40,005 nucleotides of DNA from Actinomycetota bacterium (GCA_035947055.1 DASZKM010000099.1:1-40005), one strand, 5' to 3'; shown: positions 1,588 through 37,408, counted from the first letter of the stretch. Numbers and translations are program-made. The notes: generated from the letters alone by a model not told the origin.

Positions 1588-2042
1588 TCACCGTCTACGA
1601 CGCCGTGAAGTTCCTCCACGTGGTCCTGGCCATCATCGCGGTGGGGTTCAACGCCTCCTACGGCATCTGGCTGTCCCGGGCAGCCAGAGACCCCGATCAC
1701 GAGCTGCACGTCCTGCGGGGCATCAAGGCGCTCGACGACCGGTTCGCCAACCCGGCCTACGCGCTGCTCCTGGTGACCGGCCTGATCATGGTGGCGATCA
1801 GCGGGGTACGGATCACCGACTTCTGGATAGCCGCCGGACTGGCCCTGTACGCCCTGGTCGTGGTGGTCGGGGCGGGCTTGTACACCCCCACGCTGCGCCG
1901 GCAGATCGAGGTCCTGGAGGTGCAGGGGCCGACCTCGCCCGCCTACCAGCGGCTGGCCACCCGGTCGCGCATCACCGGGATCGGGCTGGCCATCCCCACC
2001 ATCATCATCGTGTTCCTCATGGTCACCAAGCCCACGTTGTAG
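1584..2042 (+). CDS. DUF2269-like integral membrane protein (4 predicted TM helices)
   Basis: The GTG at 1584 overlaps the preceding TGA (GTGA). VKFLHVVLAIIAVGFNASYG... plus three further hydrophobic helices. The upstream part of the track ORF (1359-1583) overlaps the previous gene and looks non-coding. Confidence 0.6.
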   Translation: MITVYDAVKFLHVVLAIIAVGFNASYGIWLSRAARDPDHELHVLRGIKALDDRFANPAYALLLVTGLIMVAISGVRITDFWIAAGLALYALVVVVGAGLYTPTLRRQIEVLEVQGPTSPAYQRLATRSRITGIGLAIPTIIIVFLMVTKPTL

Positions 2043-2154
2043 CCGGGCCTTCCCGCGGGGTCCAGGCAGGAATCCGGACCCCCGGCCGCGTACTGTGTTG
2101 TTGAATGCCCGCGCCCGCTCAGCGCCTCGCGCTCGCCTGCCCGGAGGTCCCTGC

Positions 2155-6935: not shown

Positions 6936-6954
6936 ACATCCCGGCCACGTAGGC

Positions 6955-7797: not shown

Positions 7798-7809
7798 TCG
7801 AGCGATGAG

Positions 7810-9120
7810 GTGCGAGCGGTGAGGTTCGGTCGCACACGGGCCATCGCCGTGATGTCCACCTTCGTCCTGCTGGCCGGATGCATCGGGACTGCCCGGGACG
7901 AGCCCCAGGCGGCTCCCGGGGGACCCATCAGCGTGCTGGTGTGGGGGGAGCCGGAGGAGATCGAAGCGTACCGGCGCGTGGTCGAGGGATTCGCCGCGGT
8001 GGAACCGGGCATCGAGGTCCGCCTGATCGAGACCGGCGACCGTGACGATCTGCTAGCCCGGCTGTCGACGTCGTTCGCCGGAGGGACCCCGCCCGACCTG
8101 TTCCTCCTGAACTACCGCTTCGTGGGCCAGTACGCGGCCCGCGGCGTGCTGGAACCGATCCAGGGCCGGCTCGAGGAGTCCGACGCGTTCGCCCCGGAGG
8201 ACTTCTTCCCGGTGGCGCTGGAGGCGTTCACGTTCGACGGCGTGCTCACCTGCCTCCCACAGAACGTCTCCAGCCTCGTCGTGTACTACAACCGCGACCT
8301 GTTCCGTGAAGCGCGCCTTCCGGAGCCGCAGCCCGGCTGGGACTTCTTCGAGATGGTGAACCTTGCCCGGTTGCTCACCGTCGATCGCGACGGTGACCGA
8401 CGCCCCGAGCAATACGGCCTCGGCGTCGAGCCGTCCATCATCCGGCTGGCCCCGTTCATCTGGTCGAACGGCGGCACGCTGGTCGACGACGAGGCCGCGC
8501 CCACTCGGTTCACGCTGGAAGAGCCGGCGGCGGTCGAGGTGATCCAGGCGTTCTTCGATCTGCGCGAGGAGCTCGAGGTCATCCCCACCGAACGCGAGAC
8601 CGAGGCCCAGGCCGACGAGGACCGGTTCCTGAACGGCACGACCGCCATGGTCCTGGCCTCCCGACGGGAGACGCCGTCGTTCCGGACCATCACCGACTTC
8701 GAGTGGGACGTCGCTCCCCTCCCGGTGTTCCAGGAACCAGCAGGGATCCTGCACTCCGACGCGTACTGCATGCCCAGAGCGTCCGAGCACAAGGAGGCGG
8801 CCTGGCGGTTCATGGAGTTCGCGCTGGGACCGGAGGGACAGCGGATCACGGCCCAGGCCGGACGGACCGTTCCGTCGCTGATCGACGTGGCGAACTCCGA
8901 CGCGTTCCTGGACCCCTCGCTGCCGCCGGCCAACAGCCACGTGTTCCTGGACACGATCCCGTCGATCCGCCGGGTTCCCAACATCTCGACGTGGCCCGAG
9001 ATCGAGGAACGGACCGACGAGCTCCTGGAGATCGGGATGTACCAGCGGGTTTCCGCCCTGGACATCGCGCAACGCATCATCCGCGAGACCAGCGAGATCT
9101 TCGCTCGCGCGGCGCCGTGA
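7810..9120 (+). CDS. ABC transporter extracellular solute-binding lipoprotein (family 1, sugar type)
   Basis: Perfect lipobox VLLAGC. Typical SBP blocks are present (VLVWGEPEE, PDLFLLNY, VVYYNRDLF). An alternative GTG start at 7819 lies 8 nt after GAGG. Confidence 0.85.
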   Translation: MRAVRFGRTRAIAVMSTFVLLAGCIGTARDEPQAAPGGPISVLVWGEPEEIEAYRRVVEGFAAVEPGIEVRLIETGDRDDLLARLSTSFAGGTPPDLFLLNYRFVGQYAARGVLEPIQGRLEESDAFAPEDFFPVALEAFTFDGVLTCLPQNVSSLVVYYNRDLFREARLPEPQPGWDFFEMVNLARLLTVDRDGDRRPEQYGLGVEPSIIRLAPFIWSNGGTLVDDEAAPTRFTLEEPAAVEVIQAFFDLREELEVIPTERETEAQADEDRFLNGTTAMVLASRRETPSFRTITDFEWDVAPLPVFQEPAGILHSDAYCMPRASEHKEAAWRFMEFALGPEGQRITAQAGRTVPSLIDVANSDAFLDPSLPPANSHVFLDTIPSIRRVPNISTWPEIEERTDELLEIGMYQRVSALDIAQRIIRETSEIFARAAP

Positions 9121-10178
9121 GCGGCCTCCACCTGGACGGCATCCACAAGTCGTTCGGAGACGTCGACGTGCTGCACGAACTGGATCTCGACGTTCCGGAC
9201 GGAACGCTCCTCACGCTCCTGGGACCGTCGGGTTCGGGAAAGACCACGCTGCTTCGGATCGCGGCCGGCCTGGAGCGACCCGACCGGGGGCGGATCGGCA
9301 TGGACGACCGCGACGTGACCGACGTTCCCCCAGCTCGACGAAACGTGGCCATGGTGTTCCAGGGGTTCGCGCTGTTCCCCCACATGACCGTGGCGGAGAA
9401 CATCGGGTTCGGCCTGGCCGCCCGGAAGACGCCGCGGGCGGAGATCCGGCGCCGCGTCGAGGAAGCGGCGCTGCTGGCCGGTTGCCAGCACCTCCTCGAC
9501 CGGCGGCCCGGCGAGCTGTCGGGCGGCGAGCAACAACGGGCGGCGCTGGCCCGAGGCCTGGCTCGGCGACCGGGCGTGTTCTTGCTCGACGAGCCGCTGT
9601 CGAACCTGGACGCCCCGGTCCGGGCTGGCATGCGCGCCGACCTCATGCGGCTGCAACGGAGGATCGAGGGCACCATGCTGTACGTCACCCACGACCAGGC
9701 CGAGGCCCTGACGATGGGCGATCTGGTCGCGGTCCTGGACCGGGGCACGGTTCAGCAGGTCGGCCCCCCGGAAGAGCTGTACCGCCGGCCATCGAACCGG
9801 CTTGTGGCCACGTTCCTCGGGACTCCGGGGATGAACGTGCTGCCCGCGGTGGTGGATGGCGGCCAGCTGCGCCTCGGCCCGTTCCGGCTCCCTCTTCCTC
9901 GCGGCGTCCAGCCCGGACCTCGCGTGGAGGTCGGCATCCGTCCCGCCGCGGTCCGGATCGGTGACCCGGCCCGTGGAGAGCCCGCCACCGTGGAGCTGGT
10001 CGAGGTGGCGGGCGAGGATGCCTACGTCCACCTGCGAGCGGGAGAGATTCGGGTCGTGGCGGCGGTCCCGGCCCGCGCGCGTCCGCAGGCGGGCGACCAG
10101 GCCAGGGTGGCCTTCGACCCGGACGACGTGTACGTGTTCGACGCGGACACCGGCGCCACGCTTGGGTATCCGGCATGA
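9117..10178 (+). CDS. ABC transporter ATP-binding protein (MalK/UgpC-like)
   Basis: The GTG overlaps the SBP stop (GTGA). Walker A GPSGSGKTT, signature LSGGEQQR and Walker B VFLLDEPLS are present, plus a C-terminal regulatory domain. Confidence 0.9.
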   Translation: MSGLHLDGIHKSFGDVDVLHELDLDVPDGTLLTLLGPSGSGKTTLLRIAAGLERPDRGRIGMDDRDVTDVPPARRNVAMVFQGFALFPHMTVAENIGFGLAARKTPRAEIRRRVEEAALLAGCQHLLDRRPGELSGGEQQRAALARGLARRPGVFLLDEPLSNLDAPVRAGMRADLMRLQRRIEGTMLYVTHDQAEALTMGDLVAVLDRGTVQQVGPPEELYRRPSNRLVATFLGTPGMNVLPAVVDGGQLRLGPFRLPLPRGVQPGPRVEVGIRPAAVRIGDPARGEPATVELVEVAGEDAYVHLRAGEIRVVAAVPARARPQAGDQARVAFDPDDVYVFDADTGATLGYPA

Positions 10179-11056
10179 GCGTCGATGCCGAGCGCCGCGG
10201 GCTGCTGGCCATGCTGGCCCCGTACCTCGTGGGCGTCGGCGTGCTCGTGCTCCTGCCCGCCGTCTTCACAGTGGCCATGGCGTTCTACGAGTACGACCTG
10301 ATCCGGCCTGGCGACTTCATCGGGCTGGTCAACTTCCAGGAGCTGGCCCGCGACGAGGTGTTCTGGATCGCGTTGCTGAACTCGCTGGGATTCGTCGCTG
10401 CCGCCGTTCCTCTTCGCCTGCTCGGGGCGCTGGGGCTGGCCCTGCTTCTCCACCGCCGGTTCCGCGGCGTCGGCGCGTACCGGACGGCGGCCTACCTCCC
10501 GACCGTGATCCCGGACGTGGCCTACGCGCTGCTGTGGCTGTGGATCCTGAATCCGATCTTCGGTCCGCTCAACCTGGTACTCGACGCGGTCGGGCTTCCC
10601 ACCTTCGGCTGGCTGGCGTTCCCCAACGCCACCCGGGCAGGGATCGTGCTGATGAGCGTGTTCACGATCGGCGAGGGGTTCCTGGTGGCCATGGCCACCC
10701 GCCAGGCCATCCCCGGTGAGCTGTACGAGCTGTCCGCGATCGAGGGAGCCGGCCCATGGCGCGTGTTCCGGACCGTCACCCTTCCGCTCATGGCTCCGGT
10801 CCTGCTGCTGCTCCTGCTGCGGGACACGATCTTCAGCTTCCAGGTCACGTTCGTCCCCGCGGTGGTGGTCACCGGCGGCGGGCCCGCTCCCTACGCCACG
10901 ACCTATCTGCCGCTGTTCATCTACCGGAACGCGTTCGAGTTCCTCCGGTACGGGTATGCGGCGGCGGCCACCGTGATCATGTTCCTGATCACGTTCGTGA
11001 TCGTGGAGGTCCAGGTCAGGATCATCCAGCGCTGGCGCCACGCGCTGATCGTCTGA
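10175..11056 (+). CDS. carbohydrate-type ABC transporter permease (MalF-like)
   Basis: ATGA overlap with the ATPase stop. Multi-TM. EAA loop ELYELSAIEGAGPWRVFRTVTLPLMAP. Confidence 0.85.
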   Translation: MSVDAERRGLLAMLAPYLVGVGVLVLLPAVFTVAMAFYEYDLIRPGDFIGLVNFQELARDEVFWIALLNSLGFVAAAVPLRLLGALGLALLLHRRFRGVGAYRTAAYLPTVIPDVAYALLWLWILNPIFGPLNLVLDAVGLPTFGWLAFPNATRAGIVLMSVFTIGEGFLVAMATRQAIPGELYELSAIEGAGPWRVFRTVTLPLMAPVLLLLLLRDTIFSFQVTFVPAVVVTGGGPAPYATTYLPLFIYRNAFEFLRYGYAAAATVIMFLITFVIVEVQVRIIQRWRHALIV

Positions 11057-14056: not shown

Positions 14057-15025
14057 CTAGGCGTTCGGCCCGCTGGGACCGATGACGGTCCCCAGGTGAC
14101 GGAGCTTGTCCGGGTTGGAGATGGCCCGCACCGTCTGCACCAGGTCGTCGGCGATGTCCACCGTGACGGCGGCAATGACCCGGCCCTCTTCATCGAAGAA
14201 GAGCGCTCCGGGCTGCCCGTTGATGGTCGCGGTATGTATGCCCACAACCCCAAAGCGCTCGCCCGCCGTCGCGCCGCCAAGGAGGACCCGCGCCGCTCGT
14301 TCCCGTCCATGCACCGGCCGCGGGAACGCGGGACCCTTGCCGCCACCATCCGCGTACACGACGACATCGGCGGCCAGCAGATCGACGAGGCCCTTCGCGT
14401 CTCCGTTCGCCGCCGCGTCGAAGAAGCGTTGGGCGAGCTCCTCGCGGCGCTTCCGCGAGGCCTCGAAACGCGGCTTCTTGGCCTCGACCTGCCGCCGGGC
14501 ACGGACGGCGATCTGCCGGCAGTTCTCCTCGCTCTTTCCGACCACGGCGGCGATCTCGTCGTACCCGTAGTCGAAGACCTCGTGGAGCAGGAACACCGCG
14601 CGTTCGACCGGCGAGAGACTCTCCAACAGGACCAGGAACGCCATGGAGAGTGAATCCGCCGTCTCCGCATGTTGCGCCACGTCCGGCTCGGCATCCATGA
14701 GCACCGGCTCCGGCAGCCACGTGCCGACGTAGCGCTCCCGGCGGACGCGGGCCGAGCGGAGGTGATCGATGGCAAGTCGGGTGGTGATTGCCGAGAGGTA
14801 CGCCTTCGGCGAGTCGACCTTCGTTCCCTTCTCGGACTCACGGTGGAAGCGCAGGAACGCCTCCTGGACGATGTCCTCGGCATCGCTGGCGCTGCCCACC
14901 ATCCTGTAGGCGATGGAGAACAACAGAGGCCGAAGCCCCTCGTGGTGCTCAGCCACGTTCCCCTTCTTCGACGGGCCCGCCGCCATGATGCCACCCAAGA
15001 CGAAGTAGCGGCCGCCCTGTGACAT
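14057..15025 (-). CDS. sigJ: ECF sigma factor, SigJ/ECF41-like, with C-terminal SnoaL/NTF2-like extension
   Basis: Sigma-2 block DAEDIVQEAFLRF. The YVGTWLPEPV linker is as in mycobacterial SigJ. Sigma-4 block LSPVERAVFLLHEVFDYGYDEIAAVVGKSEENCRQIAVRARR. About 100 aa of extension follow. An alternative start is M14 (14986). Confidence 0.85.
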   Translation of the reverse strand: MSQGGRYFVLGGIMAAGPSKKGNVAEHHEGLRPLLFSIAYRMVGSASDAEDIVQEAFLRFHRESEKGTKVDSPKAYLSAITTRLAIDHLRSARVRRERYVGTWLPEPVLMDAEPDVAQHAETADSLSMAFLVLLESLSPVERAVFLLHEVFDYGYDEIAAVVGKSEENCRQIAVRARRQVEAKKPRFEASRKRREELAQRFFDAAANGDAKGLVDLLAADVVVYADGGGKGPAFPRPVHGRERAARVLLGGATAGERFGVVGIHTATINGQPGALFFDEEGRVIAAVTVDIADDLVQTVRAISNPDKLRHLGTVIGPSGPNA

Positions 15026-15034
15026 GTGCGCCCC

Positions 15035-24430: not shown

Positions 24431-24463
24431 GTGACGACCTCCACGCTCGTCATGCCCCAACGC

Positions 24464-24469
24464 TAGACT
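24464..24469 (+). promoter_or_regulatory. candidate -10 hexamer TAGACT, 7 nt before the GTG (leaderless-type)
   Basis: TAGACT, then 7 nt, then the GTG at 24477. There is no SD. Confidence 0.3.
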
Positions 24470-24476
24470 GTCCCCG

Positions 24477-25241
24477 GTGCCCGCACCTCGAACGTCCGCA
24501 CGCGTCTCGGTGGCCGTCCTCGCCGTCGCCCTCTCCAGCATGAGCGGTGCGCAAGCGTCGTCCCAGCTCGACCAGCTCCCGAACCTGGTGCCGCTCGCAC
24601 CGTACGACCTCCACGTGGGATCGACCGACGACGGTCGGGGGGATGCCATCCGCCTGTCGGTGTCGACGGCCAATCGAGGCAGGTATGCCCTCGACCTGAC
24701 GGGCGTGCCCAACATGGGCTTCCCGCAGGTCTCGGATGCCTACCAGTGCGTGGCCTGGGTCACCGAGCGGGTGTGCCAGGACCGGCGGCTCGTGGGGCAG
24801 TTCGTCTTCCACGCCGCGCACGACCATTACCACTTCGAGGACTACGCCCTGTACGAGCTGCGGCGGCTGGATGAGACCGGCCGGCCGGACATGAGCCCCG
24901 AGGGACTGGCCGCCCCCGGCGTCAAGGCGTCCTTCTGTCTCATCGACTACGACCGGGACGGCTCTCCGCCGCACCCCGTCTACGAGCACGAGCACCCGCT
25001 CTATCTGACGTGCACGGGCAGCTTCGGGGTGGGGGTGCAGGGGATCTCGCCGAGCTGGCGGGACACCTACCGATCCGGCCTGGACGGCCAGCAGATCCCC
25101 ATCGACGGCGTGCCCGACGGGGACTACGCTGTCGTGGTCACCGCCGACCCCAAGAACCGGCTGGCCGAGACGAACGAGACCGACAACGTGTCGTTCGCGC
25201 CGGTGCGCTTGCGGGGCGGCTCGCTCAACTCACTCCCGTAG
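24477..25241 (+). CDS. secreted lysyl oxidase-like (LOX catalytic domain) copper amine oxidase, paralog 1
   Basis: Signal peptide. LPNLVPL...RLSVSTANRG. His cluster HAAHDHYH. GVKASFCLIDYD carries the LTQ Lys. GISPSWRDTYRSGLDGQQIPIDGVPDGDY carries the LTQ Tyr. AETNETDNV is also present. The protein is collinear with the animal LOX domain as I remember it. Confidence 0.8.
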   Translation: MPAPRTSARVSVAVLAVALSSMSGAQASSQLDQLPNLVPLAPYDLHVGSTDDGRGDAIRLSVSTANRGRYALDLTGVPNMGFPQVSDAYQCVAWVTERVCQDRRLVGQFVFHAAHDHYHFEDYALYELRRLDETGRPDMSPEGLAAPGVKASFCLIDYDRDGSPPHPVYEHEHPLYLTCTGSFGVGVQGISPSWRDTYRSGLDGQQIPIDGVPDGDYAVVVTADPKNRLAETNETDNVSFAPVRLRGGSLNSLP

Positions 25242-25320
25242 AGCCCTCCGCAATCGGCACCAAATAGTCATTTCTAGCCATGGCCTTTCCCGGCCGGCCC
25301 CTCGAGACTTTGCGGAGTTC

Positions 25321-26538
25321 ATGGGACGGGCGAAGGGCACGAAGAGCGGATTGCTGGTCGCCGGGCTGGCGGCGGCCCTGGTAGGGACGTCCCCGGGAGC
25401 CGGCTGGTCCGCCACCACGACGACCACAGCCGTCCCCAGCAGCGCCACGGTCCTGGCCGGCTCCATCGCCTCCGGAACCGCGGCCAACCTCTCCACCGAC
25501 GACGGCTCCGCCTACGAGGTCAACTCCACGGCGAGGTCGTCGTTCAAGACCCAGTGGCAGGGATCGTTCACCGACGTCCCGAACGAGATCACGAGCCTCA
25601 CCGTCTCCTACCAGGGATGGAACTCGCGAAGCTGCAGCCAGGTCCTGTTGATCCGGAAGTGGTCGTCCGGCAGCTGGGTCAAGCTCGACGCGCAGCGCGT
25701 GGGACCGACGGAGGTGCTGGTGACCGTCGCACCGACGGACAGCCCGTCACGCTACGTCAGTGGAGCCACCGGTCCGGGCGACGTGAGCCTCCGCGTGAAG
25801 TGTTCAACGACCGCCGGGAGGTTCCTCTCCAGCGCGGATCTCCTGAACCTGACCTATGACCAGGAGGTGCTCATCGACGAGCTTCCCAACGTCGTGCCCC
25901 TCAAGCCCTTCGATCTCAGGGTCGGGCTCCAGGACGACGGCACCGGGCCGGCGCTTCGTCTGTCCGTCTCCACGGCCAACCGGGGGAGCTATCCGCTCGA
26001 CGTGCTGGCCGTTCCAGGGGACGGTGGAGGCAGCTCCGATGCCTACCAGTGTGTGGTCTGGTCCACCCCTCGGGAGTGCCAGCAGCGCCGGGCGGTGGGC
26101 GAGTTCGTCTTTCACGCGGCACACAACCATTACCACTTCGAGGACTTCGCGCTGTACGAGTTGCGTCGCCTTGCTGTCGACGGCGGGCCCGACCTGAGTC
26201 CTGAGGGTTTGGTCGCGCCCGGCGTCAAGGCCTCGTTCTGCCTCCTGGACTACGAGTCGGACGGACCACCTCCCGACCCGGCGTACGAGGATCCCTACTA
26301 CGTCCGGTGCTCGGGAAGCGACGGTGACGGCATCCAGGGCCTCTCCCCTGCTTGGCGGGACACGTACCGATCCGGGCTGGCCGGCCAGCAGATCCCGATC
26401 GACGGCGTCGCCGACGGTGACTACGCGGTGGTGATCACCGCCGACCCCACCGACCGCCTGTGGGAAAGCGAGAACGGCGACAACGTGTCGTTCGAACGGA
26501 TCCACCTGGCCGGCGGGTCTGTCTCCCTCCTTCCGTAG
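25321..26538 (+). CDS. secreted lysyl oxidase-like protein, paralog 2, with extra ~190-aa N-terminal domain
   Basis: Same LOX blocks (HAAHNHYH, GVKASFCLLDYE, GLSPAWRDTYRSGLAGQQIPIDGVADGDY, WESENGDNV). They are preceded by an unassigned Ser/Thr-rich beta-type domain. Confidence 0.8.
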   Translation: MGRAKGTKSGLLVAGLAAALVGTSPGAGWSATTTTTAVPSSATVLAGSIASGTAANLSTDDGSAYEVNSTARSSFKTQWQGSFTDVPNEITSLTVSYQGWNSRSCSQVLLIRKWSSGSWVKLDAQRVGPTEVLVTVAPTDSPSRYVSGATGPGDVSLRVKCSTTAGRFLSSADLLNLTYDQEVLIDELPNVVPLKPFDLRVGLQDDGTGPALRLSVSTANRGSYPLDVLAVPGDGGGSSDAYQCVVWSTPRECQQRRAVGEFVFHAAHNHYHFEDFALYELRRLAVDGGPDLSPEGLVAPGVKASFCLLDYESDGPPPDPAYEDPYYVRCSGSDGDGIQGLSPAWRDTYRSGLAGQQIPIDGVADGDYAVVITADPTDRLWESENGDNVSFERIHLAGGSVSLLP

Positions 26539-28603: not shown

Positions 28604-29766
28604 GCGACGACCGTTTCGAGACCAGGGCCATCCACGCGGGACAGGAACCCGAGCCCCTGCACGGCGCCGTGAACGTTCCCATCTACCAGACCTCGACGTA
28701 CGCCCAGGAGGGCGTGGGGCGCCCCAAGCGGTTCGACTACGCGCGGGGAGGCAACCCCACCCGGGAAGCGCTCGAGGTCGCGCTGGCCTCCCTGGAGGGC
28801 GGCATGCATGGGCTGTGCTTCGCCTCGGGCATGGCCGCCGAGTCGACGCTCCTCCTGTTGCTGGCCCCGGGCGATCACGTGGTCATCCCCGACGACGTGT
28901 ACGGCGGCACCTACCGCCTCCTGGCCCGGGTCCTGTCGGACTGGGGCGTGGCCTTCGACACCGCCGATCTGACCGATCCGGACGCGCTGCGCAAGGCCGT
29001 CCGCGATGAGACGAAGGTGGTGTGGGTGGAGACTCCCACCAACCCGCTTCTCAAGGTGATCGACATCGCCGAGGCCGCCGAGGTGGCCCACGAAGCCAGG
29101 GCCCGATGTGTAGTGGACAACACGTTCGCCACGCCGTACCTCCAGCGGCCGCTCGAGCTTGGCGCCGACGTCGTCGTCCACTCGGTGACGAAATATCTCG
29201 GCGGACACTCCGACCTGGTCGGCGGGGCCCTGGTTCTCAACGACGATGAGATGGCGGAGCGACTGCGGTTCCTGCAGAACGCGCTGGGTGCGGTCCCCGG
29301 CCCGATGGATTGCTACCTGGCACTGAGGGGGGTCAAGACCCTGGCTGTTCGCATGGAGGCGCACTGTCGCGGCGCCCGACAGGTGGCGGAGTTCCTGGAC
29401 TCCCACCCCAAGGTCGAGCGCGTCCATTACCCCGGGCTAGCCACCGATCCGGGCCACGACGTGGCAGCCCGGCAGATGCGCGACTTCGGGGGGATGGTCT
29501 CGTTCGAGATGGGAAGCGCGGAGGAAGCGGTACGAGTGGCGGAGTCCACCCGCCTGTTCTTCCTCGGGGAGTCGCTCGGAGGCGTGGAGTCACTGGTCGA
29601 GGTCCCCGGCCCGATGACCCACGCCAGCGTGGCCGGCTCACCGCTGGAGGTGCCTCCCGCCCTGATCCGCCTGTCCGTGGGGATCGAGCACCCCGACGAT
29701 CTGGTGGAGGACCTGGCCCACGCCCTGGAGGCGCAGGGCAGGTCGGACATGTCGCCCGGCGACTAG
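28600..29766 (+). CDS. metB: cystathionine gamma-lyase/gamma-synthase (Cys/Met PLP family)
   Basis: FETRAIHAGQEP, YARGGNPTR, VVHSVTKYLGGHSD (PLP Lys) and RLSVGIEHPDDL are present. Confidence 0.9.
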   Translation: MSDDRFETRAIHAGQEPEPLHGAVNVPIYQTSTYAQEGVGRPKRFDYARGGNPTREALEVALASLEGGMHGLCFASGMAAESTLLLLLAPGDHVVIPDDVYGGTYRLLARVLSDWGVAFDTADLTDPDALRKAVRDETKVVWVETPTNPLLKVIDIAEAAEVAHEARARCVVDNTFATPYLQRPLELGADVVVHSVTKYLGGHSDLVGGALVLNDDEMAERLRFLQNALGAVPGPMDCYLALRGVKTLAVRMEAHCRGARQVAEFLDSHPKVERVHYPGLATDPGHDVAARQMRDFGGMVSFEMGSAEEAVRVAESTRLFFLGESLGGVESLVEVPGPMTHASVAGSPLEVPPALIRLSVGIEHPDDLVEDLAHALEAQGRSDMSPGD

Positions 29767-31697
29767 CGTTTCCGCCGCTTCGCCGAGGTCACCGGCTCGA
29801 TGGGCGCGTAGCCCGCAGCCTTGTCCGGTGCCAGCTGCTGATCGAAGTGACCCTTCTCCTCGGTGGCCTCCAGCGTGGCCCCCTCGGCGAATCGAGGCGG
29901 CTCCTGTCCCTCCCGGAGCACCTGGAAGACCTTCAGCCGCTCGGTCTTCCCCTTCACGTGCAGCGGTGGCAGCGGGGCGAGACGGAGGTCGCCATCCAGT
30001 AGGTTCGCTGTCCGCTCGGTGACCACCACCTGGCCCGGGCCCGCCACGCCGCAGATCCGGCTCGCGGTGTTCACCGTGTCGCCGATAACCGTGTAGTCCA
30101 GCCGCTCGGTGGACCCGATGTTGCCAACCACCGCCTCCCCGGTGGAGATGCCCACCCCGCATCCCTGCACCTGGAGCCCCGCCGTCTCGCCGCGGGCCAC
30201 GGCCCGCTCGATGTAGTCCAGCATCCGCATCGCGGCCCGGACCGCGCGCTGGGCGTGCTGCGGCTCGGCTCTGGGCGCGCCCCAGAAAGCCATGACGCAG
30301 TCCCCCATGAACTTGTCGATGGTCCCCCGTTCCTCGTTCACCGCGCGGACCATGGCGTCGAGATACGCGTTGAGCGCCTTGACCACCTCGGTCGGCTCCG
30401 CGCCCTCGGATGCTGCGGTGAACCCACGAAGGTCGGCGAACAGAACGGACAGCGGGCGTGACGCGCCTTCCAATGTGGCCAATGCACGCTCCGGAGCCGA
30501 CAGGACCTCCTCCACCACGTCCTTTGCCACGTACCGGCCGAACACGCGCGTGACCCGGCGGCGTTCTCGCTCCTCGGTGAAGTACCGGACGCTGAGCGCG
30601 GCGATGTACGCGACGAGGACCGCCAGCGCCGGGTAGACGAGGTTCATCACGTTGCCCTCATCGAAACGGCGAAACGCCACCATGAAGTACGCCGCTCCGA
30701 TAGCCAGCGCCGCGATCGGCGACAGCCACACCCGGACAAACGCAACGATGAGCGCGACCAAGAGGGCCACCACCGCCGCCCACGCCACCGTCGCACCGCG
30801 GGCGGCGGGGAACAGGAACCGCCCGCTGACCATGGTGTTCAGCGCGTTGGCGTGGACCATCACCCCCGGTTGGCCGGTGGACTTGTCCAGCGGAGTGAGC
30901 CGCAGATCGCCCAAGCCAAGGGCTGTGGCCCCGACCAGCACGATCTTCCCTCGGAACGCGTGGACCGGAAGCGTGCCGTCGATGACGTCGGACACCGAAT
31001 AGACGGGGAACCCCTCCGCGTAGTTCACCTCCAGGAGGTGTCCTCGGCCCGTTGGGATCAGCGCGCTTCCTACCTGTACCCCGTCGGGTCGGAGGATCGG
31101 TGGGCCCTCGAGGCCTTGATCGAGTTGGAAGAGGGCGAAGGACAGTCCGGACAGGAACTGGCGGTCGGGCGTCTCGATCACCGGGGGGAGCGCCCGGACG
31201 ATGCCGTCGGGGTCGGGGATCACGTTGGCGTGCGCCACTGCGGCGGCGGCGGCGGCCAGCTCTGGGATCGGCACCTCCAGGGTCGCGGCGCGGGGCACGT
31301 CGCCGAGACGCTGGTCGAAGGAGGCATTGCCCGCCAGGACCACGTTTCCCGCTTCACCGATCGCTCGGGCCAGGTCGGCGTCCTGTGCGGGGTCACTCGG
31401 TTCGCTGAAGGTGACGTCGTACCCGATGAGCGCAGCCCCGCCCTTGCGGAGGGCGTCGATGAGCCGGGCGTGCACCGATCGGTCCCACGGCCACCGGCCG
31501 ATCGCATCCAGGCTTCGCTCGTCAGCCGCCACGACCACGATGCGCGGGTCGGCGGCCACCGCGGGGAACAGGCCATCGGTCAGTCGAAGCTGAGCGTTCT
31601 GAAAGATGCCTGCCGAGATCCCGCTCCAGGTGAGAACGCCAACGGCCGCCGCGATCAGGGCGGAGGTAACGAGACGGAAGGCGGGTGTGCGCTTCAA
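29763..31697 (-). CDS. CHASE2 sensor / multi-TM / class III adenylate cyclase
   Basis: N-terminal TM, then a CHASE2-like ectodomain (RIVVVAADERSLDAIGRWPWDRSVHARLIDAL...VGATALGLGD...). Three TM helices follow. The cyclase domain has FADLRGFT, DKFMGDCVMAFWGAP and YTVIGDTVNTASR. TTG start. The stop shares CTAG with the metB stop. Confidence 0.85.
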   Translation of the reverse strand: MKRTPAFRLVTSALIAAAVGVLTWSGISAGIFQNAQLRLTDGLFPAVAADPRIVVVAADERSLDAIGRWPWDRSVHARLIDALRKGGAALIGYDVTFSEPSDPAQDADLARAIGEAGNVVLAGNASFDQRLGDVPRAATLEVPIPELAAAAAAVAHANVIPDPDGIVRALPPVIETPDRQFLSGLSFALFQLDQGLEGPPILRPDGVQVGSALIPTGRGHLLEVNYAEGFPVYSVSDVIDGTLPVHAFRGKIVLVGATALGLGDLRLTPLDKSTGQPGVMVHANALNTMVSGRFLFPAARGATVAWAAVVALLVALIVAFVRVWLSPIAALAIGAAYFMVAFRRFDEGNVMNLVYPALAVLVAYIAALSVRYFTEERERRRVTRVFGRYVAKDVVEEVLSAPERALATLEGASRPLSVLFADLRGFTAASEGAEPTEVVKALNAYLDAMVRAVNEERGTIDKFMGDCVMAFWGAPRAEPQHAQRAVRAAMRMLDYIERAVARGETAGLQVQGCGVGISTGEAVVGNIGSTERLDYTVIGDTVNTASRICGVAGPGQVVVTERTANLLDGDLRLAPLPPLHVKGKTERLKVFQVLREGQEPPRFAEGATLEATEEKGHFDQQLAPDKAAGYAPIEPVTSAKRRKR

Positions 31698-31765
31698 CCG
31701 GGGGTCACCGGGCGAGCGATTCGGAGGTGAAGGTCACGGCGGCCGAGTCTATCCCCGGCCGCTGC

Positions 31766-32980
31766 TCACCGCGGCTCGGGGCAAAAGCCCAGGATGACCG
31801 CCTCCGCCCGGAGGTTTTGGCACGGATCGGGACAGAGACCGAGCGATCCGAAGTCGCACGGATCCGGCTCGGGCTCGCAATGGCCGAGCGGTCCGAAGCC
31901 GTCAATCACGGGGCAGTCATGGGGCGCCCGCGGTGGCGCATCGCAGGCGTCGCCGTATCCATCGCCGTCGGAGTCGGTCTGATCCGGGTTCGCCGCTCCG
32001 TTGCAGTTGTCCGTGTCGTCGGGCACCCCATCCTGGTCACTGTCCAGAGGCTGGACCGGCGGAGGCGGCGGAGGCGGCGGAGGCGGTGGAGGCGGCCCGG
32101 GCGGCGGGCCTCCACCGGGCCCGTCTGGCTCATTACCGCCCCCGATCTTCTCGGGGACCTGGACCGCTGGCAACTCCACGGACGTCTCCGAGGACGAGAA
32201 CCTCCTTGCCCTCGGCCGGTCCTCTTCTTCTTCTTCCTGGCCGCCGTTCACCGCCGGGTCGGACGGGCAGAACGGCACACCCTCCTCCTCGAGCGTGCAC
32301 AGGTTCAGAAGCGTCCACGGGTCGAGCAGTTCCTCATCCGTGAGATCGAACGGATCCCCGGCCCGGCCATCGCCGAACACCTGCAGGCCCTGACCCTCCG
32401 TGACGACGACCTCGGTTCCGTCCTGCAGGATGACTACGACCTCGCTGAGCCCCGGCGTGTCATCGGGAAGAACCCACACGAGGAACCCGCCGTCCGGCAG
32501 GAGGACCAGGATCCAATCCGTGCCGCGGACCGAAGCCGTGGCTGTGGGGGTGATGACATCGAACCGGCTCTCGGAGTCGGTGATCTCCGTCACCCGCTGG
32601 AAGGTGCGGCCTTCGCTCTGGGTCGCCTCGATGACCTTGCTGTCCGGGATCTCCGGGTCGCTGGAGAGCTCACGGAGGGCGAACGTCGTGTCGTGGTCTA
32701 GACGAGTGATGCTGCCGTCGAAGTACTCGATCTCCGCGAGCCCATCCGATCCCGTCCGCACCGTGTCCCCGGCCCGAAGCGCCTGACCCTCCGCACCGGC
32801 TGCGAAACCCCCTTCACCCGCCTTCTGTACCTCGACGACGCCTTCCAGAGGGTGCAGGGTGGCGAATTCCTTCGCCGTGGCCGGGCCGGCGGTGACCACC
32901 ACGAGAACGGCGAACAACGCCACCACCGCGGCCGCGGTGAAGCCGGCGATCCACTGGTTCTTTCGGGAGCCCAAGAGCAC
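31766..32980 (-). CDS. membrane-anchored FecR-domain protein 1: poly-Pro tract, TSP type-3 Ca-binding repeat, Cys-rich tail
   Basis: GTG start and one N-terminal TM. FecR-like blocks are present ([31 protein letters not shown]). P17-like tract at aa 292-308. DSDQDGVPDDTDNCNGAANPDQTDSDGDGYGDACD at aa 313-347. The last 50 aa contain eight Cys. Confidence 0.75.
   Translation of the reverse strand: MLLGSRKNQWIAGFTAAAVVALFAVLVVVTAGPATAKEFATLHPLEGVVEVQKAGEGGFAAGAEGQALRAGDTVRTGSDGLAEIEYFDGSITRLDHDTTFALRELSSDPEIPDSKVIEATQSEGRTFQRVTEITDSESRFDVITPTATASVRGTDWILVLLPDGGFLVWVLPDDTPGLSEVVVILQDGTEVVVTEGQGLQVFGDGRAGDPFDLTDEELLDPWTLLNLCTLEEEGVPFCPSDPAVNGGQEEEEEDRPRARRFSSSETSVELPAVQVPEKIGGGNEPDGPGGGPPPGPPPPPPPPPPPPPVQPLDSDQDGVPDDTDNCNGAANPDQTDSDGDGYGDACDAPPRAPHDCPVIDGFGPLGHCEPEPDPCDFGSLGLCPDPCQNLRAEAVILGFCPEPR
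32058..32093 (-). repeat. 9-nt tandem repeat x4 (GGCGGAGGC on + strand) encoding the poly-proline tract
   Basis: GGCGGAGGC GGCGGAGGC GGCGGAGGC GGTGGAGGC read directly. It is in frame within the FecR-1 CDS. Confidence 0.9.
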
Positions 32981-32988
32981 GCGGGCGG

Positions 32989-32994
32989 AGTGTA
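32989..32994 (-). promoter_or_regulatory. candidate -10 hexamer TACACT, 8 nt before the FecR-1 GTG (leaderless-type)
   Basis: CCGATACACT is conserved upstream of FecR-1 and FecR-2. There is no SD. Confidence 0.35.
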
Positions 32995-33053
32995 TCGGGG
33001 AGCCGGGCAGCCGCTAATAGCCCTTTGGGGCCATTTTCGGCGTAGTTACCTGC

Positions 33054-34169
33054 TCACCCCGATGGAGGGGGCGGGATCGGAGGGGTTTCCTCCGGGCTGT
33101 CGCACGCATCGCCGAACCCGTCCCCATCGGAGTCCTGCTGGTCGGGGTTGGAGACCGACACACAGTTGTCACGGGCGTCGGGTACCCCGTCCCCGTCGCT
33201 GTCGGGAGGTGCGGGTGGTGGCGGGGGTGGAGGACCGGGAGGGGGAGCGGGAGGACCCGGGGAAGGATTACCACCGCCGGTCCCTCGTCCGCCCGCGCCG
33301 CCATTCGGGTTGCCATCGTCCGTTGCGACCGGGTCTGTTTCCCCGGGGCTCTCCTCTGGGAACGGGGATGGGGGCGTCTCGAGATCCGGGGTGTTGTCTC
33401 GTGGGCGCTTCGCCTCGTCGTTACTCCTCGGGGGCTGCTCTTCGCCGCTCCCCAAGCACTCCGTCAGCCGCGCGGCCTCGAGACACCGGTTCAGCTGGGT
33501 CCAGGGGTCCTCCAGCTGGCCCGGCCCCAGGTCGAAGAGCTCGCCGGCACTGCCGTCCGGAAACACCATCAACCCCTGGTTCTCCTGGACGACGATCGAG
33601 GATCCGTCTAGCAGGACGATGACCAGTTCGCTGAGCTGATCCGGGTCGTCATCCGGCAGAACCCACACCACGAACCCACCGCTGGGAAGCGACGTCAGGA
33701 TCCAGGAGGTTCCCCGAACCGATGCAGTGGCGGTGGGAGTGGTGACGTCGAACCGGCTCTCGGAATCCGTGATCTCGGTGACGCGCTGGAAGGTTCGTCC
33801 GGCGCTTTGAGCAGCCGTGATGAGCTTGCTACCCGGGATCCCCGGCAGGCTGGAGAGTGCACGCAGGGTAAAGCTCGTGTCGTGGTCGAGCCGCGTCAGG
33901 CTGCCATCGAAGTAGGCGATCTCTGCGAGGCCGTTCGGCCCGGTTCGTACCGTGTCCCCCGCCCGCAGCGTCTGTCCGTCGGAGGCCGGGACAGCGGATG
34001 GTTCACCCCTCCCCTGGACTTCGACGTGGCCCGCAAGGGTGCGGAGGGTAGCGAACTCCTTCGCCGTGGCGGGCCCGGCCGTGAGCACGACGGCGGCGAG
34101 GATCACCGCGAGAACACCGATCGACGCGGTCGCCGCTACCCGGGCGCGCTTGGACTCCAGAACGGCCAC
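33054..34169 (-). CDS. membrane-anchored FecR-domain protein 2: Pro-rich tract and TSP type-3 repeat
   Basis: Collinear with FecR-1 for ~228 aa. [35 protein letters not shown] at aa 323-357. Confidence 0.75.
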
Positions 34170-34176
34170 GAGCCGA

Positions 34177-34182
34177 AGTGTA
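34177..34182 (-). promoter_or_regulatory. candidate -10 hexamer TACACT, 7 nt before the FecR-2 GTG (leaderless-type)
   Basis: Same CCGATACACT motif as upstream of FecR-1. Confidence 0.35.
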
Positions 34183-34240
34183 TCGGTCCGGCCCTACAAG
34201 GGCCGACTGGTCACGCGACCGGTGGGCCTGTCCCCAATGC

Positions 34241-34930
34241 CTACGGAAGACCGGCGGACGTTCCCCCGGCGGACGTTCCCACGTCGCTGTCGCCGTCCCC
34301 GTTCCAATCACCGTCGACGTCTCCGTCCCAGCCGCCGACGCGCTCACCGTCGCCATCCCAGTCGCCATCGACGTCCCCGTCCCAGTTGTCGGGCTGGACG
34401 TTCTCTCGATTGCCCTCGTGGTTGTCCTTGCACGGCTTGCAGATGCACTTGCCATAGAAGTCCTTGCACCTGTCCGGGCAGCCGTCTCCCTCTCCTCGCC
34501 GTTCTGGCCGGTCGCAGGCGTCTCCGAAGCCGTCGCCATCCGAGTCGTGCTGCTCGGAGTTCGGGGCGGTGCGGCAGTTGTCTTCACCATCAGGAACGCC
34601 GTCCCCGTCCTGGTCGCCGGGGCCCTGCTGGAACCTGGTCGCGCCAGACGAGGCCGTTCCCGTGGTCCCGGCGTACCCGGACGAGCCCGAGGAGGACGCA
34701 GTGGCTACCGGCGTTCCTGCCGTCGTCCCGCTCTCGGACCCGGATGATGCGATCAATGCCTGAGAGGCGAGGAAGGCATCCGACGTGAGATCGGCAACGC
34801 CTTCCGATCCCCGGTCGACCATGCCGGGAGCCGGGCCTGCCCCGAAGACAACCGTGGCATAGACGACCGAAACGGCGGAGAAAGCTGCGAGTCGTGCGAG
34901 AAGCGAGCGCTTCCTGGATGGCGCGGACAT
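34241..34930 (-). CDS. secreted Ser/Thr/Gly-rich protein with TSP type-3 repeat, Cys-rich knot and Asp-Gly-Trp repeats
   Basis: ATG lies 6 nt after AAGGAGG. N-terminal signal/anchor. [53 protein letters not shown]. Two WDGDVDGDW(D/N)GDG(E/D) units. Confidence 0.7.
34289..34384 (-). repeat. two ~16-codon direct repeats encoding WDGDVDGDW(D/N)GDG(E/D)
   Basis: aa 183-196 and 201-214 of the 34241-34930 product. Visible on the + strand as repeated ccgtcgacgtc(t/c)ccgtccca. Confidence 0.8.
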
Positions 34931-34963
34931 GGCAGTCCTCCTTATGTGGGCGCTAGCCCCATG

Positions 34964-34993
34964 ACGCTACCCAGCCGAACGACTGAAGGTCAA
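34964..34993 (-). promoter_or_regulatory. sigma-70-like promoter for the TSP3 gene (-35 TTGACC, 18-nt spacer, -10 TAGCGT)
   Basis: Read on the minus strand in the 131-nt gap after FecR-3. It leaves a ~30-nt leader carrying AAGGAGG. Confidence 0.4.
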
Positions 34994-35061
34994 GCGTCCG
35001 ACAGTCGCAGGCCGACGTATTTCGCGCGCCGGGCGACGGATTCGCCCTAATTGTGCGGGTC

Positions 35062-36711
35062 CTACAGGCCTATTGATCGAGAAACCGACTCGCTGCTCGC
35101 CAGGACGTCACCGGTCACGCCGCCGATGTCAGCTTGCGAGGTCGGCGGGCTCAGAGAACCCACCTCGTCCACGACGCTGGACGTGTGGACCTGAGGCCCA
35201 TCGGCGGATCCGCCTCCGGACCCTCCCACCGTGGGCGGACGCTCCTCGGCGCGGTCCTGCGACGCCCTCGCCTCCGTAACCACGCGAACCGAGAATGACG
35301 CCACTCCCTCCGCCGTCCACGAGAAGGTTGCCGGAGTCGGATCGACGTTCCCGGCCCGGTCCCGGGCCCGAACCTGGAACGTGTGGAGACCGGGCCCCAG
35401 GCCCGCGTACTCCGCGGGACTCGCGCACGCGAGGAATGGCCCCCCGTCCAACGCGCACCGGAAGGTAGAGCCGCGTTCCGATGATTCGAAGGCGAACAGC
35501 GCCTGGGTGCCGCCGGAGATCAGCGTGGGACCGGAAATGACGGTGTCCGGGGCGGCCGTGTCGACTCGCCACCGGCGCCGCGCCACGGGGCCGGGGTTCC
35601 CGGAGGGATCCACCGCCCGGATCAGGACGACGTGCGTCCCATCCGTCAGGTCACGGTATCGCTGCGGCGACTCGCACCGCCGGAACCCGCCTCCATCGAG
35701 CGAGCACTCGAAGAAGGCGACCGGACCGGCGCTTGCGAACCGGAACCTGGCCCGTTTGGCGTCCACCACCCGCCGGGGACCGCCGATGACGTCCACCTCG
35801 GGTGCGGCGGCAACCGTCACGAACGCCAGGGGCGCGGCCGGAGCCACCTCGCCCTCGATGGGTGCTTCACCCTCGGCGGATGGCTGGGCGTCGGTCGGTT
35901 GCTCCTTCGGGGGCGGCCGCTGGGGCGCCGGCTTGGGGGTCGGGGTTTCCTCGGGCGGAGCGCACAGCTCGAGTTCGGGGGCTTCTGAGCACAGGTTGGA
36001 CCGCACCCATTCGTCGGTCAGGTGGGCATCCGTCAGCCGGAACGGGGCCCCGAGCCTGCCCGTCTTGAACACCGTTGCGCCCTGGCCTTCGCCAACCCTC
36101 AACCTCCCCTCGTCCTCGAGCTCAAGGCTTACGGTTCCGACCTCCGGTTGCCCGTCAGGGAGCACCCACACGGCGACCAGGCCCGTGAGCAGCCGGCTCA
36201 CCACGAAGGCTCCCTCGCCGACGGCCACAGTTCCGCCCGCTTCGACCTCGAAGTAGCTGTCGGGATCACGGCTGTCCTGGACCTGGTGGAAGGTTCGGCC
36301 TGACTGGACATCGCTCTCGATGAGCTTGCTGCCCGGCGTGTCTTCGATGTCGGCCACGCGCTCCAGGCTCACGGTGGTATCGCGGTCCAGGACGGTGACG
36401 CTGCCGTCGAAGAACTCGATCTCGGCGCTTCCGTCATCCCCCGTCCGGATCACGTCGCCCTCGCGAAGCGTGGCTCCCTCGGACCCACTGCCGAACGCGT
36501 CACCGCCACGGGCCACCTCGACCGTCCCGGTGATGGGATGCAGGGTGGCGAACTGGGAGGCGGTCACGGGGCGGGCGACGATGGCCGTCAGCCCGGCTGC
36601 CAGCACGATGACCGACAGAACCAGGCCGGCGTATTCAGCGGCGCGCCTGCGGGCGGGCTCCCGCCGGATCTCGGCCAAGCCGCGCGCAGTGTAAGACGAA
36701 GGTCCCCTCAA
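35062..36711 (-). CDS. membrane-anchored FecR-domain protein 3 with two C-terminal Ig-like (Cys-pair) repeats
   Basis: TM plus FecR-like blocks (LREGDVIRTGDDGSAEIEFFDGSVTVLDRDT). Pro-rich linker. Two repeats of F.C.LDGG.F..C.SP..Y..L..G.H...(I/V)RA.D..GN....A...W at aa 318-385 and 400-467. The start is uncertain (TTG 36711 or TTG 36678). Confidence 0.7.
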   Translation of the reverse strand: MRGPSSYTARGLAEIRREPARRRAAEYAGLVLSVIVLAAGLTAIVARPVTASQFATLHPITGTVEVARGGDAFGSGSEGATLREGDVIRTGDDGSAEIEFFDGSVTVLDRDTTVSLERVADIEDTPGSKLIESDVQSGRTFHQVQDSRDPDSYFEVEAGGTVAVGEGAFVVSRLLTGLVAVWVLPDGQPEVGTVSLELEDEGRLRVGEGQGATVFKTGRLGAPFRLTDAHLTDEWVRSNLCSEAPELELCAPPEETPTPKPAPQRPPPKEQPTDAQPSAEGEAPIEGEVAPAAPLAFVTVAAAPEVDVIGGPRRVVDAKRARFRFASAGPVAFFECSLDGGGFRRCESPQRYRDLTDGTHVVLIRAVDPSGNPGPVARRRWRVDTAAPDTVISGPTLISGGTQALFAFESSERGSTFRCALDGGPFLACASPAEYAGLGPGLHTFQVRARDRAGNVDPTPATFSWTAEGVASFSVRVVTEARASQDRAEERPPTVGGSGGGSADGPQVHTSSVVDEVGSLSPPTSQADIGGVTGDVLASSESVSRSIGL

Positions 36712-36781
36712 CGCGAAATCGGACGGCGCGAGGCCCGGTGGTGCCGGTCATCCGGAGCTCTTCACAACCGGCGCGAGGTAT

Positions 36782-36798
36782 AGTGACTTTGGGTCAGT
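36782..36798. promoter_or_regulatory. degenerate third copy of the TetR operator, overlapping TATAGT and abutting the tetR ATG
   Basis: AGTGACT-TTG-GGTCAGT compared with consensus ACTGACC-N3-GGTCAGT. The right arm is perfect and the left arm matches 5/7. TATAGT lies at 36779-36784. Confidence 0.35.
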
Positions 36799-36799
36799 C

Positions 36800-37408
36800 A
36801 TGACGGTCAACACCCAGCGCAAGCGAGTCACCAAGCAGCCCGACGTACGCCGGCAGGAGCTGATGGACGCCGCCGTGCGCGTCTTCGTGGAAAAGGGCAT
36901 CGCGCGGACGACCGTCTCCGACATCACCCAGTCGGCCGGTGTGGCCAAGGGCACCTTCTACCTGTACTTCACGTCCAAGGAGAATCTGCTCGGTGCCCTG
37001 AAGGAGCGGTTCGTCAACGACGTCCTGGCCCATGCCACCTCCCACTACGAGCGCGTCGGCCGGGAGGACTGGTGGGCCCTGGCGGACAGCATCATCGAGA
37101 GCTTCACGGACTTCATGCTGGAGCGGAAGGACATGATCCACGTCATCGTCCAGGAGGGCTTGGCCCCCGAGAGCTCCCAGCTCTTCGCCGAATGTGAGGC
37201 CAAGGTCGATGCGATGTTCGCGGCCGGGATCCAGGCCGGTATCCAGGCGGGTGTGTTCCGGACGTCAGATCCCGAGCTGCTCGGTCGGTTCATCCACCAC
37301 GCTTTCGATGGCGCGCTGACCCACGGGATCCTCTACGGCCCCCCCATCGACCGGGATCGGTTCGTGGCCGCCGCGAAGGAGCTGGTCCGCAAGGCGCTTG
37401 CTCCGTAG
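36800..37408 (+). CDS. TetR/AcrR family transcriptional regulator
   Basis: N-terminal HTH RRQELMDAAVRVFVEKGIARTTVSDITQSAGVAKGTFYLYFTSKENL. ~200 aa. Confidence 0.9.
   Translation: MTVNTQRKRVTKQPDVRRQELMDAAVRVFVEKGIARTTVSDITQSAGVAKGTFYLYFTSKENLLGALKERFVNDVLAHATSHYERVGREDWWALADSIIESFTDFMLERKDMIHVIVQEGLAPESSQLFAECEAKVDAMFAAGIQAGIQAGVFRTSDPELLGRFIHHAFDGALTHGILYGPPIDRDRFVAAAKELVRKALAP

Follow-up and report, generated by a model that had tools for sequence, protein, structure and literature searches.

Tandem FecR-fold proteins encoded beside a CHASE2 cyclase: an actinobacterial variant of a recurrent sensor-accessory pairing

CHASE2 is a common bacterial sensor found on cyclases, kinases and other outputs, and to our knowledge there is hardly a case in which the way it receives its input is understood. 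In three published systems close to the one considered here it is encoded together with a FecR-domain protein. The Burkholderia 'BiofilmReg' operon, with its counterpart PA4035/PA4036 in Pseudomonas aeruginosa, comprises a response regulator, a LysM-FecR protein (COG4254), a CHASE2 histidine kinase and a DUF4136 protein (PMC5192318), while a Campylobacterota cluster unites a CHASE2 adenylate cyclase, a cyclic AMP (cAMP) phosphodiesterase, a FecR-domain protein and a TPR protein, for which one shared signalling pathway was proposed (PMC9239204). In the clr-cyaD1-smc02177-smc02178 region of Sinorhizobium meliloti the FecR-domain gene smc02177 lies next to smc02178 and near the cyclase gene cyaD1; a plant signal induces it by way of the cyclases and Clr, and mutation of the gene gives the hyper-infection phenotype of the cyclase mutants (PMC5498481). 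Here we analyse a contig of 40,005 bp from an uncultured member of the Actinomycetota (hereafter the window, meaning the whole stretch of DNA), in which three FecR-domain paralogs and a TSP3-repeat protein are encoded in front of a CHASE2 cyclase. A sequence-only reading of this DNA had held such neighbourhoods to be experimentally untouched and CHASE2 to be without known ligand or mechanism; the first statement is wrong in view of the published work on the pairing (PMC5192318, PMC9239204), which includes the mutation of smc02177 in S. meliloti (PMC5498481), and the second is outdated.

We find that the cluster is best explained as a lineage-specific, expanded form of a widespread pairing between a CHASE2 sensor and an extracytoplasmic FecR-fold accessory protein. 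Calling of open reading frames (ORFs) places five minus-strand genes between 29763 and 36711 with gaps of 68, 73, 71 and 131 nucleotides (nt), reproducing the coordinates and the 68-131 nt spacing first read from the sequence, and the GC content at third codon positions (0.78-0.86) is coding-like in all five. The genes, given with their lengths in amino acids (aa), and the two main domains of the cyclase with its transmembrane (TM) helices are as follows:

29763-31697, minus strand: putative receptor-type class IIIb adenylate cyclase, 644 aa, with TM1, CHASE2 ectodomain, three TM helices and cyclase domain (Pfam)
29937-30455, minus strand: class III cyclase catalytic domain, aa 415-587 (residue positions, PDB relatives)
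30798-31601, minus strand: CHASE2 extracytoplasmic domain, about aa 33-300 (hydropathy, between TM1 and TM2)
31766-32980, minus strand: FecR-1, 404 aa, with N-terminal signal/anchor helix, FecR beta-solenoid at aa ~40-235, Pro-rich linker, TSP3 unit at aa 313-352 and Cys-rich tail (Pfam, AlphaFold2, Foldseek)
33054-34169, minus strand: FecR-2, 371 aa, with FecR-1-like architecture and TSP3 unit at aa 323-362 (Pfam, tree)
34241-34930, minus strand: secreted TSP3-repeat protein, 229 aa, with Cys-rich and Asp-rich tail; HEV3474543.1, annotated hypothetical (motif)
35062-36711, minus strand: FecR-3, 549 aa, with N-terminal helix, FecR beta-solenoid and two Ig-like repeats with Cys pairs (Pfam, tree)

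Evidence that the pairing is more than accidental comes from gene order in relatives. A profile of the CHASE2 region, scanned against species-representative genomes, yielded 79 loci, in which FecR genes were sought with a custom FecR profile, with critical cases checked by Pfam and with upstream ORFs of high-GC loci hand-picked for Pfam scans. Within the ortholog clade, taken as at least 43% identity in the CHASE2 region, 14 loci carry enough upstream sequence for a verdict, and 13 of them have one or more FecR genes upstream on the same strand. FecR gene(s) immediately precede the cyclase, in the same orientation, at the loci of the orthologs with 85%, 65% and 54% identity, and in the 54% case the flanks are wholly different. 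Outside the 14, the contigs of two loci (L014 and L059) are cut off within Ig-like or CarboxypepD_reg ORFs similar to the C-terminal parts of FecR fusion proteins from elsewhere, and a third (L006) offers 1.9 kb of upstream sequence only, filled by a contig-cut ORF without Pfam matches. Furthermore, the FecR-CHASE2 pairing is also found in Paceibacterota, Electrothrix, Calditrichaceae and a spirochaete. The recurrence that the sequence-only reading had stated for this neighbourhood is thereby borne out, both among the orthologs and in other phyla. Separately, at four Nitrospirales loci (L056-L058 and L061, about 5600-10750) we observed tandem same-strand CHASE2 genes, a ~745-aa cyclase directly followed by a ~940-aa protein without a cyclase domain, and the custom FecR profile detected no FecR gene at these loci.

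The sensor at the downstream end of the cluster is a CHASE2 cyclase with an intact catalytic site. Pfam assigns it CHASE2 (PF05226) with an E-value of 9.6e-53 and 179.8 bits against a cut-off of 26.3, as well as Guanylate_cyc (E 1.7e-27), and the protein is 100% identical to an NCBI entry named 'MAG TPA: adenylate/guanylate cyclase domain-containing protein [Actinomycetota bacterium]'. Hydropathy peaks at residues ~9-32, 303-321, 323-341 and 350-368, together with AlphaFold2 helices at 5-28, 300-320, 326-346 and 355-379, predict the arrangement typical of CHASE2 proteins, in which a single TM helix precedes the ectodomain and three more follow it, and the AlphaFold2 model of the CHASE2 and TM region (aa 1-380; 30558-31697, minus strand) has a pLDDT of 94.8 and a pTM of 0.91. 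A Foldseek search with this model for an STN-like or known ligand-binding subdomain returned no significant PDB fold match (best E 0.15), so that the CHASE2 fold seems to be without an experimental structure. In the catalytic domain the class III set of six residues is complete, with metal ligands D422 and D466, substrate residues K462 and T536, and transition-state residues N543 and R547. Lys and Thr at the substrate positions are the class IIIb adenylate pattern, and the best PDB relatives of the domain are that of Synechocystis Cya2 (2w01, E 8.6e-33) and its E-to-K adenylate-cyclase chimera 6fht. The prediction that the enzyme makes cAMP rather than cyclic GMP (cGMP), already made from the sequence, is therefore sound, resting on the presence of the catalytic residues, on the K462/T536 pair and on the closeness to Cya2 and 6fht.

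All three paralogs pass the Pfam cut-off of 24 bits for FecR (PF04773), FecR-1 at 33.5, FecR-2 at 31.1 and FecR-3, narrowly, at 24.8 bits, and the FecR and CHASE2 domain calls of the sequence-only reading are thus both significant by Pfam search. The conserved blocks that it had quoted are seen in the alignment of the paralogs, save that FecR-2 has T for the P of FATL.P. An AlphaFold2 model of FecR-1 built with 84 homologs is all-beta with pLDDT >90 for aa 40-235, followed by two short helices with a conserved disulfide pair and a disordered remainder. The only significant PDB matches of this model in Foldseek are FecR-type periplasmic domains, namely the putative anti-sigma factor BDI_1681 (4m0n/4m0h; E 1.8e-7 for 4m0n) and PupR (6ovk_R; E 7e-5), each over ~145 columns that cover the solenoid only. 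A PDB sequence search with the family profile was set aside as a source for this link; it matched PKD domains only, contributed by the C-termini of homologs, and the link to FecR structures consequently rests on the fold search.

Despite the shared fold, FecR-1, FecR-2 and FecR-3 are not FecR-type anti-sigma factors. In proteins of the FoxR/PupR type the periplasmic part consists of a beta-solenoid-like subdomain with a Gly-Thr self-cleavage site and a C-terminal STN-like subdomain (PMC11637429). The window proteins have the solenoid only, and they come without an anti-sigma domain, an STN-like domain, an adjacent ECF (extracytoplasmic function) sigma factor or a transducer. Specifically, the ~85-aa cytoplasmic anti-sigma domain (DUF4880) has no Pfam match in the three proteins, in which only ~10 (FecR-1 and FecR-2) or ~27 residues (FecR-3) precede the hydrophobic helix; no ECF sigma factor lies beside the FecR genes, the only ECF-type one being 15 kb off; and no TonB-dependent receptor occurs among the scanned window genes. 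The absence of the canonical FecI and FecA partners beside the cluster, noticed in the sequence-only reading, is thereby upheld, while the idea it had drawn from this, a FecR module rewired from sigma-factor control, finds no support in proteins that have the solenoid subdomain and neither the anti-sigma nor the STN-like domain. The distant ECF-type sigma factor (Sigma70_r2 and r4_2; 14060-15034, minus strand) carries a C-terminal SnoaL_2 extension and sits among paa and aldehyde-dehydrogenase genes. We considered it as a hidden FecI-like partner and rejected it in view of its distance, the unrelated metabolic genes in between and the SnoaL_2 extension; SnoaL-extended ECF sigma factors, as far as we know, operate without a separate anti-sigma factor.

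Each paralog begins with a hydrophobic helix, as the sequence-only reading had stated, but its assignment as a membrane-spanning segment is less secure. A conserved AxA-like site follows the helix just before the first conserved block (GPATA|KEFATL), so that the helices could be cleaved signal peptides, which are as plausible as membrane anchors.

Downstream of the solenoid the proteins diverge into different modules. FecR-1 and FecR-2 each end in a Pro-rich linker and a TSP3 unit like that of the TSP3 protein, with the full motif D.D.DG..D..DNC...N(P/S)(D/E)Q.DSDGDG(Y/F)GDACD present once in each of the three and the units 66-71% identical. Against the Pfam TSP_3 cut-off of 25 bits, FecR-2 passes with 27.8, and FecR-1 (23.1) and the TSP3 protein (21.8) fall just under. 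The sequence-only reading was right in its call of TSP3 for the last of these, which nevertheless scores below the cut-off, and it overlooked the units in FecR-1 and FecR-2. FecR-3 has instead two Cys-pair Ig-like repeats with weak Big_13/OmpL47 matches, which that reading had likewise overlooked. In relatives the C-terminal modules are PKD, Big_13 or CarboxypepD_reg, or else a separate RTX protein is present: a DUF11/CLIPPER and RTX (HemolysinCabind) gene lies between FecR and cyclase in three loci (L003:7992-9989, L007:6287-7987 and L010:5264-7981; L013 covers the same place as L003 and is not counted). Because this RTX gene occupies the position of the TSP3-bearing genes of the window, a Ca2+-binding repeat protein appears to be a recurring, non-homologous component of such clusters. 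In L003 we also observed a large S8 protease gene following the cyclase. TSP3 and RTX repeats are expected, from what is generally known of them, to bind Ca2+, and repeats of this type are common in secreted proteins; their presence is no evidence for Ca2+ sensing, and a role of Ca2+ in the cyclase cluster is something we infer. The proposal that the FecR and TSP3 proteins act as Ca2+ co-sensors went further than this, with one TSP3 unit per protein as its only basis, and is unsupported.

The FecR genes change faster than the sensor beside which they are kept. Their copy number ranges from one to four across loci, and independent tandem expansions have led to two, three or four copies. FecR-1 and FecR-2 are 56% identical and sisters in the tree, the product of a lineage-specific duplication; FecR-3 is 55% identical to, and groups with, its ortholog, the 533-aa FecR protein of L001, the closest relative and the contig of the 85% ortholog; and the four-copy arrays of two Acidimicrobiia arose separately according to the tree. 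Comparison of the window with L001 gives 53-55% identity for the FecR proteins and 78-92% for the cyclase and flanking genes. Likewise, in 44 of 45 locus pairs conservation is lower for the proximal FecR protein than for the cyclase, a comparison in which only its ~200-aa FecR domain is alignable. Fast divergence with exchangeable C-termini fits exposed specificity determinants and ordinary surface proteins equally.

Upstream of FecR-3 lies a divergently transcribed regulatory gene, with a conserved block between the two:

36800-37408, plus strand: TetR-family regulator, divergently transcribed (Pfam TetR_N, 5.4e-18)
36777-36799, strand unassigned: conserved block with TGAC-N5-GTCA palindrome, candidate operator (window versus L001 comparison)

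The divergent TetR arrangement is kept in L001 and L002, with a TetR protein that is 92% identical. Apart from the nearly identical block GACTGACCCA(AA/GG)GTCACTATACC, the sequence between the two genes of the window is not preserved in L001; the block GACTGACCCAAAGTCACTATACC, which contains the palindrome directly upstream of the TetR start codon, may be a TetR operator within a shared divergent promoter region, and the TetR protein would be a candidate regulator of the cluster. A scan for promoters and terminators detected none on the coding strand within the cluster, U-tailed terminators included, the sigma-70 consensus being of little use at 69% GC, and an Rfam scan of 29-38 kb found no riboswitch or other RNA family. 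The TSP3-protein start codon is preceded by AAGGAGG, a strong ribosome-binding site. In L001, L003 and L004 the genes of the cluster are spaced from a 4-nt overlap to 25 nt apart, with the exception of one 168-nt gap in L001. Co-transcription of the five genes is plausible, given the tight or overlapping spacing in relatives and the lack of U-tailed terminators on the coding strand.

These results are compatible with a model, which we tentatively favour, in which the FecR-fold domains act as accessory receptors that adjoin the CHASE2 ectodomain and control its activity, with cAMP as the output. The five genes would be expressed together, with the divergent TetR protein as their possible regulator. 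On the external side of the membrane the FecR-fold domains would then lie close to the CHASE2 ectodomain, and the fast-evolving C-terminal modules, adhesin-like or Ca2+-binding, would bind macromolecules of the envelope or the environment. The resulting signal would pass through the three-helix bundle to the cytoplasmic cyclase dimer and alter the production of cAMP. Co-transcription, physical contact between FecR and CHASE2, and the direction of information flow are the parts of this scheme that we infer.

Several observations weigh against an accessory-receptor role. The sole genetic test of such a neighbour showed that smc02177 is needed for infection control and not for perception of the plant signal (PMC5498481). 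In anti-sigma factors it is the STN-like subdomain that binds the TonB-dependent transducer, and the solenoid fragment alone did not (PMC11637429); the window proteins are solenoid-only, with no Pfam match to the STN-like subdomain (DUF4974) in the three and no such fold in the FecR-1 model. Among the 14 assessable ortholog loci, L012 is without a FecR gene, and a more distant actinobacterial sister clade of CHASE2 cyclases (36-43% identity) has no FecR neighbour and mostly hydantoinase or GMC-oxidoreductase genes upstream, so that FecR is not obligatory for CHASE2 cyclases. Conversely, FecR(+PKD) proteins 35-46% identical to FecR-1 occur without a nearby CHASE2 gene (L085:4977-11849, L086:4763-11864 and L087:4974-11995) in a conserved housekeeping context of Actinomycetota, in the order prfB, FecR, YfhO on the opposite strand, ftsE-ftsX and smpB, a hint that the FecR fold may serve more generally as a partner module in the envelope, perhaps in connection with FtsEX. 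Finally, each gap of the cluster (31698-31765, 32981-33053, 34170-34240 and 34931-35061, minus strand) opens with a GC-rich hairpin within ~35 nt of the upstream stop codon and without a U-tract, which weakens the case for co-transcription. These hairpins, which are not more stable than shuffled sequence in any of the four gaps (z -1.1 to -1.4), could be tail-less terminators, attenuators or stabilisers.

The first alternative reverses the order of events, in that the FecR and TSP3 proteins would be outputs or effectors, i.e., envelope or adhesion proteins coordinated with or controlled by cAMP that do not gate the cyclase. It would account for the S. meliloti data, where the FecR-domain gene is induced through cAMP and Clr and its mutant mimics the cyclase mutants with perception intact (PMC5498481). 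The C-terminal modules, whether TSP3, PKD, Big_13, CarboxypepD_reg or RTX, are typical of adhesins and surface proteins, for which fast divergence and changes in copy number are usual, and the nearest NCBIfam families of the FecR parts are the Leptospira surface adhesins Lsa33 and LipL45. On the other hand, the FecR genes of the window and its orthologs precede the cyclase in the same orientation and at short distances, and so look less like the target of a regulator than like part of a single transcription unit. In addition, the window yielded neither a CRP-type regulator nor a binding site, and a pure output role does not account for the specific association, across phyla, with CHASE2 instead of with cyclases of any kind. 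We therefore regard this alternative as possible but rather unlikely.

A second alternative borrows from FoxR and FecR, and by that analogy the FecR-fold proteins might be cyclase inhibitors controlled by proteolysis, with self-cleavage at a Gly-Thr (GT) site and stimulus-triggered degradation freeing CHASE2. FoxR indeed self-cleaves at such a site within its beta-solenoid subdomain (PMC11637429), the one equivalent to the window domain. In FecR-1 the pair is G153-T154 (32519-32524, minus strand), with the Gly invariant and the Thr conserved in at least 90% of 84 family members; FecR-2 has an aligned Gly-Thr pair, and profile alignment places G153-T154 on G181-T182 of E. coli FecR. That alignment is weak, however (E 0.14), the GT pair is perhaps purely structural, and FecR-3 has GE in its place; judged by these residues, self-cleavage would be conceivable in FecR-1 and FecR-2 and, because of the GE, not in FecR-3. 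The S8 protease gene that follows the cyclase in L003 would fit such a scheme, but it is conserved neither in the window nor in L001, and the cluster has no linked protease, Prc or RseP homolog. On balance such a mechanism appears improbable. Least of all do we believe that ordinary secreted proteins lie beside a cyclase by chance, for although the FecR-free sister clade, the related FecR proteins in other contexts and the hairpins in the ~70-nt gaps would suit it, the gene order is conserved in 13 of 14 assessable ortholog loci despite changed flanks and effectively excludes pure coincidence, and the pairing recurs in distant phyla and in three independent publications.

The accessory-receptor model could be carried further than this cluster. 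FecR-fold beta-solenoids might serve across phyla as dedicated CHASE2 co-receptors or gatekeepers, with exchangeable C-termini (TSP3, Ig-like, PKD, RTX partners) defining the input and tandem paralogs making several inputs converge on one cyclase, a generalization that we consider doubtful but that, if true, would provide the first general mechanism for CHASE2. Whichever role it has, the FecR-fold partner is a concrete and cheap experimental handle on CHASE2, because it is kept beside this sensor from Actinomycetota to Proteobacteria. The actinobacterial version is useful for its repeated paralog expansion and for partners that evolve much faster than the sensor. Actinomycetota are, in addition, usually regarded as being without an outer membrane, which in this version would eliminate intermediaries such as NsrA, an outer-membrane component of the S. 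meliloti system. Should the partners prove to be outputs, as the S. meliloti case suggests, a conserved cAMP-linked envelope module would still have been defined.

The remaining genes of the window are mostly metabolic. The cluster is flanked by the TetR regulator, a NUDIX protein, an SDR protein and cystathionine enzymes, and the 3' end of the cyclase gene runs 4 nt into that of a convergent cystathionine gamma-lyase-type gene (29763-29766), an overlap of equal length being kept in L001 (11935-11938). Unusual in this otherwise metabolic setting are several secreted-protein genes, namely two adjoining lysyl-oxidase-domain ORFs (24435-26535, plus strand), a CHRD-domain protein (557-1126) and a BNR/sortilin-like 908-aa protein (1831-4554).

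The cluster can be compared with several known systems. With FecR, FoxR and PupR it has in common the beta-solenoid fold and its R-F-x-V-x-T...G-T-x-aromatic motif and, provided that the N-terminal helix is kept, the N-in/C-out layout, whereas the anti-sigma domain, the STN-like subdomain, the adjacent ECF sigma factor and the TonB-dependent transducer are theirs alone. The catalytic domain of Synechocystis Cya2, a CHASE2 class IIIb guanylate cyclase, is the closest solved relative of the window enzyme; Cya2, however, is a producer of cGMP whose substrate positions are occupied by Glu and Gly, while the window enzyme has K462 and T536 and in this respect is like the engineered 6fht. The Burkholderia and Pseudomonas operons likewise encode a periplasmic FecR-domain protein immediately upstream of the CHASE2 sensor (PMC5192318), but with a kinase and response regulator as output and an accessory protein that is present in a single copy and bears LysM, a domain for which Pfam gave no match in the window proteins. 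The Campylobacterota cluster also groups a CHASE2 adenylate cyclase with a FecR-domain protein, yet there the partner is predicted to be at the outer membrane, phosphodiesterase and TPR genes absent from the window are included, and tandem FecR paralogs or TSP3 modules are not reported.

The S. meliloti system encodes CyaD1, a class III adenylate cyclase with CHASE2, near an extracytoplasmic protein that has a FecR domain (PF04773) and is free of an anti-sigma domain, and the two act in one cAMP pathway (PMC5498481). It differs from the window in belonging to a diderm alphaproteobacterium, whose input needs the outer-membrane protein NsrA and the plant protein uL2 (PMC13001267), in having a single FecR gene without TSP3 or Ig modules, and in including in its cluster a CRP-type regulator, none of which was found in the window. 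Overall, the CHASE2/FecR-domain pairing has already been described three times, and the window carries an actinobacterial variant of it, with several tandem paralogs, with TSP3 and Ig modules, and with none of the outer-membrane partners of the diderm systems.

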